Position numbers and translations under genes: made by a program | Part shown: positions 16,721 to 59,741 of the stretch, piece by piece | How the letters are laid out: every line of letters starts with the position of its first letter | How positions within the stretch are numbered: the first letter of the stretch is position 1 | Origin: a virus | Lineage: Duplodnaviria; Heunggongvirae; Uroviricota; Caudoviricetes | Virus record (IMG/VR): IMGVR_UViG_3300033069_001798 | Span: 1 to 64,000 of that record | Direction: 5' to 3' (one strand) | DNA length: 64,000 nt | Notes under the pieces: generated by a model | What the model was told of the DNA's origin: nothing | Database searches by the model: none | The model's input: the letters and a program-made list of their open reading frames with translations, nothing else

Positions 16721-17480
16721 CAGCTTGTTCACGTTGTGCAACATTGTGATCATGCGTTGCACACAAACTTGAACACCAACGTCTTTGATTAAATGCTTTT
16801 ACTGAACCAAGTGTGATAGGTTCATGAGGCAAGAATGATTTCGAACAACGTATGCAAAATTTTGGTTCGAAATCATTAATATCAAATCTATTCTGCAACT
16901 CTGGTCTATGTTTACCGGTCATAGATTTTGATATTTTCAATCGTACATCTTCTGAACGATGCAAACCACTATTTTTCTTGTTACGATACAAGGTTGAACA
17001 TCTTCTAGAACAAAATTTTTGTGAAATAAATCCCTTAAGCCTCGATGCTGTCAATGCAGCGTGAGGATATATCATATTTTCGCATCCTGAACATGGTTTT
17101 GGTTTGGCATCTGGATGTGATGCATCAATTCTGCGCATGTGTGATGTCGACATCTTCAATCTAGTTTCATCGCTCGGACTTTTTATACCTTGACCGCCCA
17201 CTGTCAGATTATAACCGTGTGTTGAATCGTTAGATTTGAATTCGAGAATGAATTTTGTTTCATATTCATACGCCTCTTCTTCAGTGCTATATTCACCTAG
17301 TATATCAAATGTGAATTGATCGATCCCGTAGAGTTTTATCGCTCTTGCTACGTAACTTTTAGGCGTTCCGGCTTTAGATGATATGACATGTCTGTTAAGA
17401 CGTCCAAAAGGATTGTTAGATTTTCCAACATACTTTTTACCATCAACGTTATTTGTAATGCAATATACGTAAGAAGCCAC
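16611..17480 (-). CDS. GIY-YIG homing endonuclease (Seg/I-TevI-like), free-standing
   Basis: N-terminus YVYCITNNVDGKKYVGKS..R..H..E..YNLTVGGQG. Has NUMOD3-like repeats (SDETRLKMS, SEDVRLKIS) and two CxxC..(F/W)CSxxC zinc ribbons. AT-rich: ~35% GC by hand count at 16861-16920. The 3' end runs antisense into gene 16508..16720. Confidence 0.8.
   Translation of the reverse strand: MASYVYCITNNVDGKKYVGKSNNPFGRLNRHVISSKAGTPKSYVARAIKLYGIDQFTFDILGEYSTEEEAYEYETKFILEFKSNDSTHGYNLTVGGQGIKSPSDETRLKMSTSHMRRIDASHPDAKPKPCSGCENMIYPHAALTASRLKGFISQKFCSRRCSTLYRNKKNSGLHRSEDVRLKISKSMTGKHRPELQNRFDINDFEPKFCIRCSKSFLPHEPITLGSVKAFNQRRWCSSLCATHDHNVAQREQAAIRRRLRSDCARTTHPNDQNHRRCTPCTTAATILPL
16740..17480 (-). mobile_element. 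AT-rich homing-endonuclease island 1
   Basis: Sharp drop in G+C relative to the flanks, coincident with the GIY-YIG ORF, at a convergent gene junction. Confidence 0.6.
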
Positions 17481-17793
17481 GTTTATTAGGTATTGACGAT
17501 CTCACTGCTACATCCCTAACAAATGGGTCTTGCATCAAGTAAGGCTCTGGCGCGATAGGCGGCACTGGTCCGTAATCATCTTCAACTGTTACGTACTCGT
17601 CTCTCAAGTGAGCTGTGATGTCATCATCTGGCTCTCCGAACTCTAGCTTTCCTAGAGCTTCCCTTGAGTTGATGTCTGAACCATTGTTAGGCGAGCGACC
17701 AGCGGGTTGAGGCGGCGATGCAAAGCCGCCGCCAACCTCTCTGAGGATCTCTTCTAGCACAATCTGCCGCACACGAGCGATCGTTATCTTCAC
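17449..17793 (-). CDS. Hypothetical protein with N-terminal 'RVRQIV.EEI' leader motif
   Basis: GTG 17793 gives VKITIARVRQIVLEEILREVGGGF.., parallel to MRINVERVRQIVREEIERMM at 21460. The track start is TTG 17856. Confidence 0.5.
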   Translation of the reverse strand: MKITIARVRQIVLEEILREVGGGFASPPQPAGRSPNNGSDINSREALGKLEFGEPDDDITAHLRDEYVTVEDDYGPVPPIAPEPYLMQDPFVRDVAVRSSIPNKRGFLRILHYK

Positions 17794-17811
17794 CCTTGTA
17801 AGTATCCGGAT

Positions 17812-17817
17812 TACAAT
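17812..17817 (+). promoter_or_regulatory. TACAAT (-10-like) element 6 nt upstream of ATG 17824
   Basis: tTACAATggtgccATG lies in the divergent region upstream of the Alt-like gene. Confidence 0.35.
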
Positions 17818-17823
17818 GGTGCC

Positions 17824-17979
17824 ATGAAGATATGGTGCTACATATGCATATCGCAAGCAGCTTGGTTCCTTGGTTTTCGCAGCATCTCGTGCAAGTACTA
17901 CGTGCTTGCACTCCGCGAAAGAATATCAAAAGCGATGCCCGAGATAGAAGAGATAATCCGTGCCGCCTCGAGCGAATAA
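17824..17979 (+). CDS. Possible 51-aa ORF (leaderless?) upstream of the Alt-like gene
   Basis: Hand-read: MKIWCYICISQAAWFLGFRSISCKYYVLALRERISKAMPEIEEIIRAASSE. Below the track cutoff. Supported only by the TACAAT-N6-ATG context. Confidence 0.25.
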   Translation: MKIWCYICISQAAWFLGFRSISCKYYVLALRERISKAMPEIEEIIRAASSE

Positions 17980-17988
17980 TTAAGCTCC

Positions 17989-57657: not shown

Positions 57658-57692
57658 GTCGACAACCTCTGGTCCTAAATAGGCCGTACAGA

Positions 57693-58187
57693 TCATTTGG
57701 TCGCATGCGATAGAGCAAAAACGGTGAGCACGGTGAAAACAGCGCCGCCAGCAAAACCACCAGCAACCCACAGCATGGGATTGCTAGAGCTAGATGATTG
57801 CTTTCGAATCTCTTCGTTTAGCGCAGCAATCTCTTTTTCTTTTGCAACGATTGATGCACTTAGGATCTTCTTCTCAGCGTCAGTCGTTGCTTGAAGTTCT
57901 GCGAGCTTGAACTGCGACTGTGCGGCAGCTTCAGCTTTCGCCTTGTCAACTTCGATCTTCACTTGATCTTTGGAAGAATTTAGCTGCACGATGATGCTTG
58001 CAACAGCTTTTGGCGATAGCAAAACACCAGTGTAAGGTGCTGGCTCACCCTTTTTCATAGGAGTCGTCACAGCACCAGGATCTGGTTCAGCAGCTGGAAC
58101 TGCTGGCACAGTCAACCCTTCGCATCGACCAGGGATTGCTGAAAAGAAGAACGTCAGAAACGTTACTAGCGTGATGAACTTTTTCAC
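57693..58187 (-). CDS. Secreted/membrane-anchored coiled-coil protein
   Basis: Signal-like MKKFITLVTFLTFFFSAIPG, a central coiled coil and a C-terminal TM WVAGGFAGGAVFTVLTVFAL. Confidence 0.5.
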   Translation of the reverse strand: MKKFITLVTFLTFFFSAIPGRCEGLTVPAVPAAEPDPGAVTTPMKKGEPAPYTGVLLSPKAVASIIVQLNSSKDQVKIEVDKAKAEAAAQSQFKLAELQATTDAEKKILSASIVAKEKEIAALNEEIRKQSSSSSNPMLWVAGGFAGGAVFTVLTVFALSHATK

Positions 58188-58576
58188 TTACCACCCGTGG
58201 GGATGACAACTGTGAAACCTGCCGCTTCCGACAGTTGCTTTGAAAGCTCGGTCGGATCATCGCTCCACTTTTTCACGATGTTCTCAATCTCCTTACGCTT
58301 CTTCTCGTCAAGGTCTCTCTTAGCAGCTTCGTACTGCTGCTGGATTGACATCAACGTTTCATTGAGCTTACGCTCGTTCTCGATGTGAGCTTTTCGCTCT
58401 TCTTCACGTGCCTCATTGATCTTCTTAATCTCTTCCTCGTGCGCCTTCTTGATATCTGACAGCTGGTCAGAAAAAGAAGATTTTTGCCTCGTAAAGATGA
58501 AGAAACCAGCGACAGCAATGAGAAATCCAACGGCAAGTTGCCAGTAAGCTTTGACGAATGCCCAAAATTTTGCCAT
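58184..58576 (-). CDS. N-terminally anchored coiled-coil membrane protein
   Basis: WQLAVGFLIAVAGFFIF, then a charged coiled coil. Confidence 0.5.
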   Translation of the reverse strand: MAKFWAFVKAYWQLAVGFLIAVAGFFIFTRQKSSFSDQLSDIKKAHEEEIKKINEAREEERKAHIENERKLNETLMSIQQQYEAAKRDLDEKKRKEIENIVKKWSDDPTELSKQLSEAAGFTVVIPTGGK

Positions 58577-58890
58577 CGTAAGTTCGGCTTGTTCGGGACT
58601 TCTTTTGTCTTTGTTGCGGGAGCATATTCAGCTGGTTTTCCCTTCAACAGTTCGATGATCTTCTTCTGCGTTGCTTCAATCTCAGCAATGCGCTCATTGT
58701 GAACCTTGTAGGCTTTAGCAAGAGAGACAATCGACTTAGCGACTGAACTAACGTTGATAGACAGAGCTAGGATGTCAGACTTGGTCTCAGTCAACATCCC
58801 AGACGCTGACATCAAGTACTCAAATGCATCAATCGCTTTCGCCAGCAGCTTCTCTTCGAGCGATTTCTTCAAGTTTTTCACGTCTTTCAT
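58351..58890 (-). CDS. Hypothetical protein (179 aa)
   Basis: MKDVKNLKKSLEEKLL... The last ~75 codons overlap gene 58184..58576 in another frame. Confidence 0.4.
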   Translation of the reverse strand: MKDVKNLKKSLEEKLLAKAIDAFEYLMSASGMLTETKSDILALSINVSSVAKSIVSLAKAYKVHNERIAEIEATQKKIIELLKGKPAEYAPATKTKEVPNKPNLRWQNFGHSSKLTGNLPLDFSLLSLVSSSLRGKNLLFLTSCQISRRRTRKRLRRSMRHVKKSEKLTSRTSVSSMKR

Positions 58891-59182
58891 TTTCCTCTAT
58901 TAGAGTATACATCGCTTCAGCGTCAAGTTCATGCAATTTTTTGCCGTAATCTCTCTTTGGCTTTGGAGCATCATCGAGAGCTGCACGTATTTTCTTCGTC
59001 ACTAGGCCTTTCAAGACGTTGTAACCCGGCCCAGCGTCATCAATAACTTGCCTAGCGAACTCATCAAATAGTTCTTGAAGAGAAACACCATGATGGAAAG
59101 ATTTAACGCGTAGTTCAGCATGCACCTCTTTGTCAAGGTTGATGTGCAAGCTTTTCTTTGTGACAAGCGCGTCAGATTTCAT
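58829..59182 (-). CDS. Ribbon-helix-helix (CopG/Arc-like) DNA-binding protein
   Basis: KKSLHINLDKEVHAELRVKSFHHGVSLQELFDEFARQVI fits a beta-alpha-alpha RHH pattern. Confidence 0.45.
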   Translation of the reverse strand: MKSDALVTKKSLHINLDKEVHAELRVKSFHHGVSLQELFDEFARQVIDDAGPGYNVLKGLVTKKIRAALDDAPKPKRDYGKKLHELDAEAMYTLIEENERREKLEEIARREAAGESD

Positions 59183-59741
59183 GAACTAAGACTGCTCCTC
59201 CTCCGCCGACGCCTCCATCACCTGCTCGATCAGCTGGAGGTGCAGTGAATTCATCTTCCATTTCATCCCTTGACTTACCGATCTCCATGCCATGCTCGTT
59301 GCGAAGCTGCTCTTTGAATGAATCAGCAACTGACTCATCGTAATTCTTCGACAAGAAGTTTGACGCCCTACGCAAGATCGTATTTCTAACTTCTAGCAAG
59401 GAGTCGTAGTTGTCTATCAACCTGACAACGCCGTTGACAAAAGAGCCCACGTCAATGTCTTCAACAGTAAGCTTCTTTGGTTCATCGCTAGAATCATCAC
59501 CCTTGTCGTCATCTTCACCAGCTTCAACGATTCGACGCACAGTCATTCGCCAATCGCGACCCTCGGTCTTTGCGGACTTTGCTTCTTTTTCATAGTCATT
59601 CAAGTAACGATCGACCTGAGAGTCTAGTGAATCTTCTCCCGGCTCTTCTGTTGGTGGCGTTGGCGCTTCGCCTTCTTCTCTGAGAATCTCTTCTCTTAGA
59701 ACACGCCGAAGATCACCCAAGCGAACCTTAAAAGTCTTCAT
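59172..59741 (-). CDS. Acidic protein (189 aa) with strong leader motif
   Basis: MKTFKVRLGDLRRVLREEILREEGEAPTPP... Confidence 0.6.
   Translation of the reverse strand: MKTFKVRLGDLRRVLREEILREEGEAPTPPTEEPGEDSLDSQVDRYLNDYEKEAKSAKTEGRDWRMTVRRIVEAGEDDDKGDDSSDEPKKLTVEDIDVGSFVNGVVRLIDNYDSLLEVRNTILRRASNFLSKNYDESVADSFKEQLRNEHGMEIGKSRDEMEDEFTAPPADRAGDGGVGGGGAVLVHEI

Follow-up and report, generated by a model that had tools for sequence, protein, structure and literature searches.

Why should so many otherwise dissimilar proteins of one phage begin with nearly the same short peptide? The question is raised by a 64-kb stretch of DNA (the window; positions 1 to 64,000 of IMG/VR record IMGVR_UViG_3300033069_001798), which is a piece of a large uncultivated tailed-phage genome. 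A sequence-only reading of the window had listed about 15 open reading frames (ORFs) that share an N-terminal motif, five of them as strong cases, and had proposed that the motif is a capsid-targeting propeptide. The motif, here called the tag, does exist: it is specific to the N-terminal position, occurs on proteins that are otherwise unrelated and is under selection at the level of the peptide. The favoured explanation, by analogy with the targeting sequences of phage T4, is that it loads proteins into the forming capsid and is then removed, a reading whose chances we judge to be even.

The tag as an N-terminal module

The tag forms a charged amphipathic helix of about 15-22 residues, with a start at residue 1-8 and a span of 11-27 residues. 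Two classes grade into one another: class I reads M-[KR]-[IL]-[TS]-x-x-x-L-[RK]-x-[IL]-[IV]-[RK]-E-[EA]-[IL]-x-x-[VL]-L-x-E, and class II reads x-x-L-L-[RK]-E-Y-[VI]-x-x-[VI]-L-x-E. An example of the tag is the 22-mer MRLSERKLRRIVKEEISRVLRE. Arg, Lys or Glu recurs every 2-4 residues, and the median isoelectric point of the tag is 8.5-9.4. A secretion signal or membrane anchor was considered and rejected, as charges run throughout the tag and an uninterrupted hydrophobic core (about 10-20 residues) is missing. The tag nearly always ends in hydrophobic-x-Glu (22/22 and 20/23 tags, against 14% of other proteins, a frequency for which the model itself partly selects); the residue after this ending is A, S, D or G. 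The Gly/Pro-rich or acidic linkers said to follow the motif are plain in five proteins (starts 17793, 21460, 47905, 59741 and 32824), while the general trend is weak: G, P, S, D, E, N, Q and T together make up a fraction of 0.50-0.52, compared with 0.44-0.48 in other proteins.

All five strong cases are present at the starts assigned to them. A position-specific scoring matrix (PSSM) built from these five seeds left most of the weaker cases inseparable from the internal background, and relatives were used instead. A six-frame scan of the window with hidden Markov models (HMMs) built without the weak cases recovered 9 of the 15 cases, each beside a start codon (17793, 21460, 32824, 33493, 46829, 47905, 53030, 57352 and 59741); it also gave four weak matches to short reading frames that had not been selected, and one internal match that is family-specific. 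Three further cases (44840, 50642 and 32318) are recognised through their homologues, one (35980) through the end of flap-endonuclease (FEN) homology and an ATACTTA heptamer upstream, and one (20198) by eye; the case at 53877 falls away, which leaves about fourteen tagged proteins. The carriers are otherwise unrelated, as had been stated: with the first 28 residues trimmed, the 15 bodies of the window have no mutual BLAST similarity at E<0.01.

Whether the motif favours N-termini was examined in 14 independent, related IMG/VR loci around homologues of A1, the 358-aa all-helical product of one strong case. Families were collapsed on trimmed bodies, and an HMM from the five window seeds plus the first iteration was applied at cut-offs of 4 and 6 bits. 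In the non-window loci, 5-12 families have N-terminal matches and 1-6 have internal ones (binomial p = 1.5e-4 to 4e-8), so that the enrichment at N-termini named as a check on the proposal is found. The related loci give 12-14 tagged families in all, with tags such as MKLTLGQLRRTIRE.., MKITIDQLRSVIKEE.. and MRISIDHLRRIIKEE.., and reversed-sequence controls give 0 terminal matches. On iteration the HMM drifted into the internal segments ELLKEDRKEIIEEY and IRSEY.EVY, which belong to homologous families and were not counted as tags. The invariant Leu is encoded by all six of its codons and the conserved Arg by six, and this synonymous spread at conserved residues is seen in genomes of 40% and 50% G+C. 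Selection therefore acts on the peptide and not on the DNA.

A tag cluster in a T4-type head module

A tblastn search with the consensus tag matched only LR756508.1, a huge phage of 484 kb and 40% G+C that has almost no proteins in common with the window. Here 23 ORFs (57-239 aa) start with MK[ILV][ST]E.KLR.I[IV][KR]EE[IL]..VL.E, the tag columns being conserved as L in 20/20, R in 17/20 and E in 18/20, and no similar pairs occur among the 23 bodies once 28 residues are trimmed. The virion module at 133-222 kb, with 102 of the 719 genes, contains 21 of the 23 tagged ORFs (hypergeometric p = 4.5e-17). This module is T4-like: its large terminase, portal, prohead protease, capsid, sheath and tube match those of Microcystis phage Mel-JY01, in which the protease belongs to Pfam Peptidase_S77 and the capsid protein to Pfam Gp23, the LR756508 counterparts being homologous. 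Seven consecutive tag or tag-like ORFs stand between the portal and the protease, just upstream of the latter, and six stand just downstream of it; the prohead-core genes 67, 68 and 22 of T4 occupy the same position as this cluster. Among 80 loci around Mel-JY01-like proteases, 16 of the 20 matches of at least 6 bits are N-terminal, several of them in the gene immediately upstream of the protease.

Such clustering in a T4-type head module, around a gp21-family protease, is what a prohead-core or capsid-targeting propeptide would be expected to show. In the most likely mechanism, the tag helix would attach to the prohead as it assembles, either at the scaffolding core or at the inner face of the capsid, and the flexible linker would tether it to an unrelated body, so that the attached protein would become part of the head. 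Cleavage after the hydrophobic-x-Glu that closes the tag, by a prohead protease of the gp21 type (Peptidase_S77), would then follow, and the mature protein so released would remain inside the capsid and probably be passed to the host together with the DNA. Prohead-core binding, cleavage, packaging and co-injection are all proposed by analogy with T4, and a T4-type head is presumed for the window's own phage. In T4, a change of the last Glu to Asp blocks cleavage and leaves targeting intact. The maturation site FLTE/A of T4 gp23 (the slash marks the boundary) aligns with LISE/A in Mel-JY01 and LLKE/A in LR756508, and MLE/S of T4 gp21 aligns with IIKE/S and VIKE/S in homologues; the proteases of these phages thus very probably still cut after hydrophobic-x-Glu. 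The broader proposition, that one tag of about 20 residues defines the capsid-loaded and co-injected proteome of several uncultivated huge-phage lineages, enzymes included (a Nudix hydrolase, a nicotinamide mononucleotide (NMN)-adenylyltransferase-like protein that has the tag in a C-terminal form, and perhaps IF-1 with a tag), is put forward tentatively, at somewhat below an even chance for the whole.

The principle is known from T4: there, unrelated internal proteins and Alt reach the core by way of N-terminal propeptides of 10-20 residues, which gp21 takes off (PMC9958956, PMC9026906, PMC3012670, PMC5694885). Like the tag, the capsid-targeting sequence (CTS) of IPI, IPII, IPIII, Alt and gp24 is a short, helix-like N-terminal peptide on unrelated proteins; it ends in hydrophobic-x-Glu followed by a small residue, as the tag seems to do. 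The tagged genes of LR756508 lie among gp20-, gp21- and gp23-type genes, the place of the core genes 67, 68 and 22 in T4. Alt also has a C-terminal propeptide (PMC9026906), which parallels the tag-like C-terminal helix on the nucleotidyltransferase described below. The tag differs in being longer (about 14-22 residues) and far more basic, with Arg/Lys at fixed positions, and in its number of carriers: at least 13 genes in 47 kb of the window and 23 in LR756508, compared with a handful in T4. Among its putative cargo are a Nudix hydrolase and further proteins of enzyme size, and the tagged genes of the window clade are dispersed among metabolic genes. The giant myophages phiKZ and SPN3US are similar in that many head-internal or ejection proteins are processed after x-Glu by a T4-related protease, and conserved N-termini occur on diverged paralogues (PMC5694885). 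Their propeptides, however, are mostly longer than 100 residues, have S/A-x-E sites with S/A at P3 and are common to paralogues only, whereas the tag spans 11-27 residues, has I/V/L at P3 and occurs on unrelated proteins; for those phages, a 20-residue tag common to unrelated proteins is not reported. Encapsulin cargo peptides and the C-terminal capsid-binding helices of phage scaffolds and proteases likewise combine a short terminal peptide with a flexible linker and bring diverse enzymes inside an HK97-fold shell, but they are usually C-terminal, have other consensus sequences and stay uncleaved; an encapsulin shell gene was not identified here, though no systematic search for one was made. 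The tag is undescribed in the literature searched, the coverage of which is incomplete. What would be new is its sequence, how long and how basic it is, its occurrence in huge phages that differ greatly from one another, and the number and kind of its carrier proteins.

Several observations weigh against capsid loading. The N-termini of T4 IPI, IPII, IPIII, gp24, Alt.-1, gp67, gp68, gp22 and gp21 score at most 1.1 bits against three tag models, and the T4 sequences MKTYQEFIAE, MAKINELLRE and MELITELFDE do not score against the models, so the link to T4 is one of analogy and not of homology. No N-terminal tag matches occur in the 43 kb of T4 or the 50 kb of Mel-JY01 examined. The N-termini of Mel-JY01-like large terminases match the tag model weakly, which means that low-scoring matches are not specific, and the hydrophobic-x-Glu ending, being partly built into the selecting model, is not independent evidence by its frequency; independent support for this ending comes from the E/A boundary kept within families and from the aligned sites of the gp23 and gp21 homologues. 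The T4 internal proteins are unusually basic, and tagged bodies are not. In the window, tagged genes are interspersed with genes such as those for thymidylate synthase, dCMP deaminase, thymidine kinase, RNA ligase, FEN, Nudix and, by eye, a Fpg/Nei-like protein, and they lie outside any recognisable head module. A prohead protease gene, which the sequence-only reading expected elsewhere in the genome, was sought for the window clade: no Peptidase_S77 or Gp23 gene was found in the window, in the examined part of a near-identical 81.6-kb contig or in the 14 related loci. A gp21-type protease profile led to 80 IMG/VR loci, 0 of them from contigs of the window clade, and the best 120 of 8000 matches to a gp23 profile are all Mel-JY01-like. 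Overall, the capsid-targeting proposal is partly supported.

The main alternative, and an unlikely one, is that the tag is an uncleaved docking or oligomerisation helix for another phage-built assembly, with a replication or nucleotide-metabolism factory, the abundant helical A1 protein or a vault-like shell (12043-14775) as candidate hubs. Most tagged proteins of the window are enzymes or are encoded near one, the nucleotidyltransferase C-terminus and internal domain junctions have the helix too, a major-vault-protein homologue is encoded in the window, and A1 is all-helical and conserved across the clade. LR756508, however, tags 23 proteins with no detectable homologue of the vault protein, A1 or the chaperonin, its tagged genes lie in the head module and not among replication genes, and a pure docking helix needs neither a Glu-Ala/Asp boundary nor the invariant E20 of the A1 family.

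That the cases are generic amphipathic N-terminal helices, alike by composition, plus a few true families, so that the list would largely be a product of pattern-matching, is improbable: this is excluded for the core set and largely refuted. The failure of the five-seed PSSM, the low-scoring matches in terminase N-termini and scaffold-internal segments, and the one listed case that proved to be a different helix (53877) all fit such an account, but it is contradicted by the strong N-terminal enrichment over many unrelated families after collapsing, by reversed sequences that yield no terminal matches despite having the same composition and periodicity, by the specific columns conserved in LR756508, and by homologues that keep the tag in place while the remaining protein diverges. 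Quite improbable too is a quality-control or timing signal that would tune how long the products of a gene class last or how they fold, with the tag recognised as a degron by a protease of phage or host, or gripped by the phage-encoded GroEL-like chaperonin. The window does encode a chaperonin-like protein (23535-25160) and an N-terminal-Thr hydrolase-like ORF (62752-63309), and the tag is predicted to be exposed on a flexible linker; yet LR756508 has no detectable homologue of the window chaperonin, the hydrolase-like ORF has no Pfam support, and the clustering in the head module would go unexplained. Conservation at the DNA or mRNA level, as a translation-initiation region or recombination cassette, is very improbable and is excluded for the core set, for although an ATAYTTA heptamer lies 6-14 nt before the start codon of several tagged genes and T4-type phages are described as shuffling genes via conserved regulatory cassettes (PMC2839356), every synonymous codon is used for the conserved residues in genomes of both base compositions, the heptamer also precedes untagged genes and most tagged genes do without it.

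If capsid loading is correct, metagenomic sequence would be enough to list the internal or ejected proteins of uncultivated huge phages, where purified virions and mass spectrometry are now needed. Dozens of proteins, made in advance, would be delivered by these phages along with the DNA, and the loading of variable anti-host proteins via a common propeptide, as in T4, would be scaled to dozens of proteins, metabolic enzymes included. The tag would also be a compact natural packaging signal for engineered protein delivery by large phages.

Tagged genes of the window and their homologues

The strong cases all lie on the minus strand (starts 17793, 21460, 46826/46829, 47902/47905 and 59741). The first, ORF 17449-17793 (114 aa), has a GTG start and carries the tag VKITIARVRQIVLEEILREV at 17734-17793 (6.0 bits), followed by a GGG/Pro-rich linker; ATACTTA stands at 17799-17805. 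In ORF 21224-21460 (78 aa) the tag MRINVERVRQIVREEIERMM (21401-21460; 9.8 bits) leads into a Gly/Pro linker. The 3′ end of this ORF overlaps the start of an IF-1-like ORF (20788-21297, minus strand) by 74 nt in another frame, at an A-rich run, and a frameshift or a sequencing indel at this overlap would yield a tagged IF-1. The IF-1-like ORF, recognised by eye, continues for about 80 codons after the point where IF-1 normally stops and runs into ORF 20198-21013, which is convergent with it and overlapped by it. ORF 46167-46826 (219 aa) begins with MRLTIGQLRQIIRE (46785-46826; 19.2 bits), and ORF 59172-59741 (189 aa) with MKTFKVRLGDLRRVLREEILRE (59676-59741; 9.1 bits) and an acidic/Pro linker, the tag being variable among homologues of the latter. 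Downstream of two tagged genes, the 324-aa ORF 45158-46132 (minus strand) has a conserved segment ELLK.DR.EIIEEY, which in relatives occurs as a protein of about 95 aa; toward the C-terminus of the window copy lies a strongly acidic stretch (..EDEEDDLEGLDELDELEEDDEEEEDEEGD..) that recalls the acidic tail of the T4 prohead-core protein gp67.

The remaining strong case is A1 itself (46826-47902), with the tag MKSQRSKRILREYIREILKE at 47843-47902 and the linker DDGYGG next. A1 has 103 homologues, many of them on contigs of 100-360 kb; a regex-anchored tag is found in 74 of the 103 and is kept in almost all full-length ones, which mostly begin ..LLREY[VI]R.VL.EDDGG. R11 and E20 are invariant in the family. 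AlphaFold2 predicts a helix at residues 2-19, a disordered linker at 16-44 (pLDDT <50) and, past the linker, helical domains split by a second disordered stretch; a second conserved site, ES.[VI][IL]RE[DE], lies mid-protein in that stretch. In fold searches the best PDB profile match to A1 has E = 0.09, and Foldseek gives none <0.1 against viral models. Malate synthase and isocitrate lyase genes, of the glyoxylate shunt, lie 2-3 kb from the A1 homologue in a 359-kb relative (L016/L017, 11920-14853).

The weaker cases recovered by the HMM scan are also on the minus strand. ORF 32315-32824 carries the tag MSTSRTKEVKLLKQLIREMLTD (32759-32824) and was rightly called a Nudix hydrolase (Pfam NUDIX, E = 2.4e-20), in contrast to the labels "kinase-like" and "nuclease" given to other carriers, for which Pfam and PHROG offer no support. 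Its Nudix domain begins at residue 51, after a 50-residue extension of tag plus linker, and a homologue (L012 17968) has the N-terminus ..SLLREYILEVL. ORF 33170-33493 (107 aa) has the tag MSDQQLLKEYVSTIIAE at 33443-33493 (13.1-13.4 bits against the A1-family tag model). In ORF 52740-53030 (96 aa) the tag is MDDDLKEYIKLVVESKVRE (52974-53030), and homologues keep L.EYI.LVVE....RE/AD. The 583-aa ORF 55601-57352 has MAQKITVTRTALRELVSELL at 57293-57352 (3.4 bits) and a homologue (L011 456) with the N-terminus MSKVTVTEEAIREMVREVLD.

Three minus-strand genes are recognised through relatives. ORF 44571-44840 (89 aa) has a shortened tag, MVNILKEFILE/A (44808-44840), with ATACTTAAG upstream at 44848-44854, and its homologues start MKLSLSRLRSLIRE/A, MKLTLGQLRRTIRE/A, MKVSIRQLRSLIE/A and MRITIGRLRQLFAE/A. 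The 507-aa ORF 49119-50642 has the N-terminus MMNLRARLNAVVVEQQLRSLIKKFINE (50562-50642), and its homologues begin MTTLNELRVRRIIRRQLEQVL and MSNNLKILLSEFVKHVIAE, among others. ORF 31644-32318 (224 aa) has a probable tag, MKQHLKSYISHLIE/AAVGG (32277-32318); the window copy scores <3 bits, and the homologue L018 17580 has the N-terminus MKSTILTQYILEVLSG. Within such families the tag sequence drifts and a boundary of the type h-[RK]-E/A is kept: IRE/A, FAE/A, LIE/A and ILE/A in the 44840 family, and [VMI]RE/AD, for example MRE/AD, in the 53030 family. The motif is also kept at domain joints. In one locus (L009) the 507-aa family is fused behind a protein like the 705-aa product of 50657-52774, with ..LRESYLRKSVRAQLVE/D at the joint, and in another (P0093) the nucleotidyltransferase is fused to an A1 protein with ..INE/DYGG at the joint.

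This nucleotidyltransferase (about 48673-49305, plus strand; also L018 10001-11581) adjoins A1 and has an HxGH motif and PHROG matches to NMN-adenylyltransferase/cytidyltransferase. A tag-like helix, EALLKSWISLLIG, lies near its C-terminus (49216-49254, plus strand); in five relatives the C-terminus has the form ..E.LIR.YV...LKG-stop, with ends such as ..EALLRHYVKLLLGR, ..ESLIREYVLLTIKK and ..EALIRDFVSRYLKG. The gene is conserved beside a Nudix gene and an A1 gene, and in Mel-JY01 and LR756508 a similar nucleotidyltransferase domain is fused to a homologue of the 705-aa protein at the start of the head module.

The tag MKIKLRELKSMIRTILTE (35927-35980, minus strand) is internal to ORF 35648-36841 and stands five codons past the end of FEN homology: FEN alignments end at residue 282-288 of the window ORF, where relatives have a stop codon. 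Upstream, at 35987-35993, is ATACTTAC, the same ATACTTA element as that of other tagged genes. Given both features, 35980 is probably a true N-terminus, and the tag probably starts a nested or fused gene of 110 aa. The 3′ end of FEN runs in frame into this tagged ORF. A GIY-YIG endonuclease ORF (36796-37479) lies directly upstream of the flap-endonuclease gene (region 35648-37668, minus strand), and beyond it a 62-aa ORF (37480-37668) duplicates the FEN N-terminus, an arrangement that looks like a homing-endonuclease insertion scar. The tag can serve as an annotation aid, as it fixes true start codons, for instance the GTG at 17793 and, nested in a longer ORF, the start at 35980; where a gene call in a database starts past the tag, it is correctable likewise.

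Two listed cases stand apart. The plus-strand ORF 20198-21013 (271 aa) has a possible tag, MLIRINELKELIRVAVLNE (20198-20254), seen by eye and scoring <3 bits; the ORF has no Pfam family and no homologues among the sequences compared. The case at 53877 (53275-53868, minus strand) is without the motif and gives no HMM match, and ten homologues of this family share another conserved N-terminal helix, G+SL..hh..hh.E.hK.

The heptamer ATAYTTA occurs 13 times in the window on both strands, which is about the chance expectation. Ten of the 13 sit 6-14 nt upstream of a start codon on the correct strand: 17799-17805, 35115-35121, 35987-35993, 37485-37491, 44848-44854, 47909-47915, 50650-50656 and 60763-60769 on the minus strand, and 22057-22063 and 48660-48666 on the plus strand. 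Six of these ten precede tagged genes or the nucleotidyltransferase. As this placement leaves no room for a Shine-Dalgarno sequence, the element may be a promoter for near-leaderless transcripts.

Surroundings of the tagged genes

The only near-identical sequence is one 81.6-kb IMG/VR contig, at 99% identity with the window; a search with a gene from the window end led to no assembly longer than this contig. A megablast search with a 20 kb query found no nucleotide relatives in the phage collection, and A1 and the 507-aa protein gave no tblastn matches. The 705-aa ORF 50657-52774 is a distant relative of a Mel-JY01 protein and of two metagenomic huge phages of 460-480 kb, with partial relatedness to Lak phages and Atu_ph07. 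Genes for dCMP deaminase, RNA ligase and CN-hydrolase are recognised in the window, together with thymidylate synthase, thymidine kinase and superoxide dismutase (precomputed Pfam matches on the identical contig). The chaperonin-like (GroEL-like) ORF and the N-terminal-Thr hydrolase-like ORF mentioned above were both identified by eye.

The major-vault-protein homologue (12043-14775, plus strand; 910 aa), which is of the eukaryotic type, matches Pfam MVP_shoulder (2e-30) as well as Vault repeats and Band_7; a vault shell gene is unusual for a phage. Its G+C of 55-56%, compared with 45-51% in flanking 2-kb windows, suggests recent acquisition. A role of the tag in marking vault cargo was rejected, as the tag does not depend on the presence of a vault gene: the window has one and LR756508, with its 23 tagged ORFs, has none. 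The 710-aa ORF 17989-20121 was considered as an Alt-like protein and likewise rejected, as it has no similarity to T4 Alt and its C-terminal part has no Pfam or PDB match; a YRG...S.S...E.E pattern seen in it by eye stays a guess.

Among further features of LR756508, the portal (145763-149923; 1386 aa) and the protease (156480-158204; 574 aa; L022/L023) have large insertions relative to Mel-JY01 that are consistent with inteins, and its head module, like that of Mel-JY01, includes a gene for ribosomal protein bS21. Relatives of LR756508 carry bS21 and probably infect Bacteroidota. Another group of ORFs in the virion module (about 250 aa; 177696-183575, 212652-214401 and 221584-222438) starts with M[RK][LF]K.[IL]L.E and has a YRG motif. 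Next to them, an ORF of 144 aa gives Pfam matches below threshold to Tpt1/KptA, ART-PolyVal and PARP, and the set may have an ADP-ribosyltransferase fold, which recalls the packaged Alt of T4.

More than 45 small ORFs (55-115 aa) stand in tandem at 35-12018 (plus strand) and at 21864-23143 and 42212-43144 (minus strand). Four members tested against Pfam gave no family. They mostly start M..(P/S/T)GDL[VL] and look like one large paralogous family.

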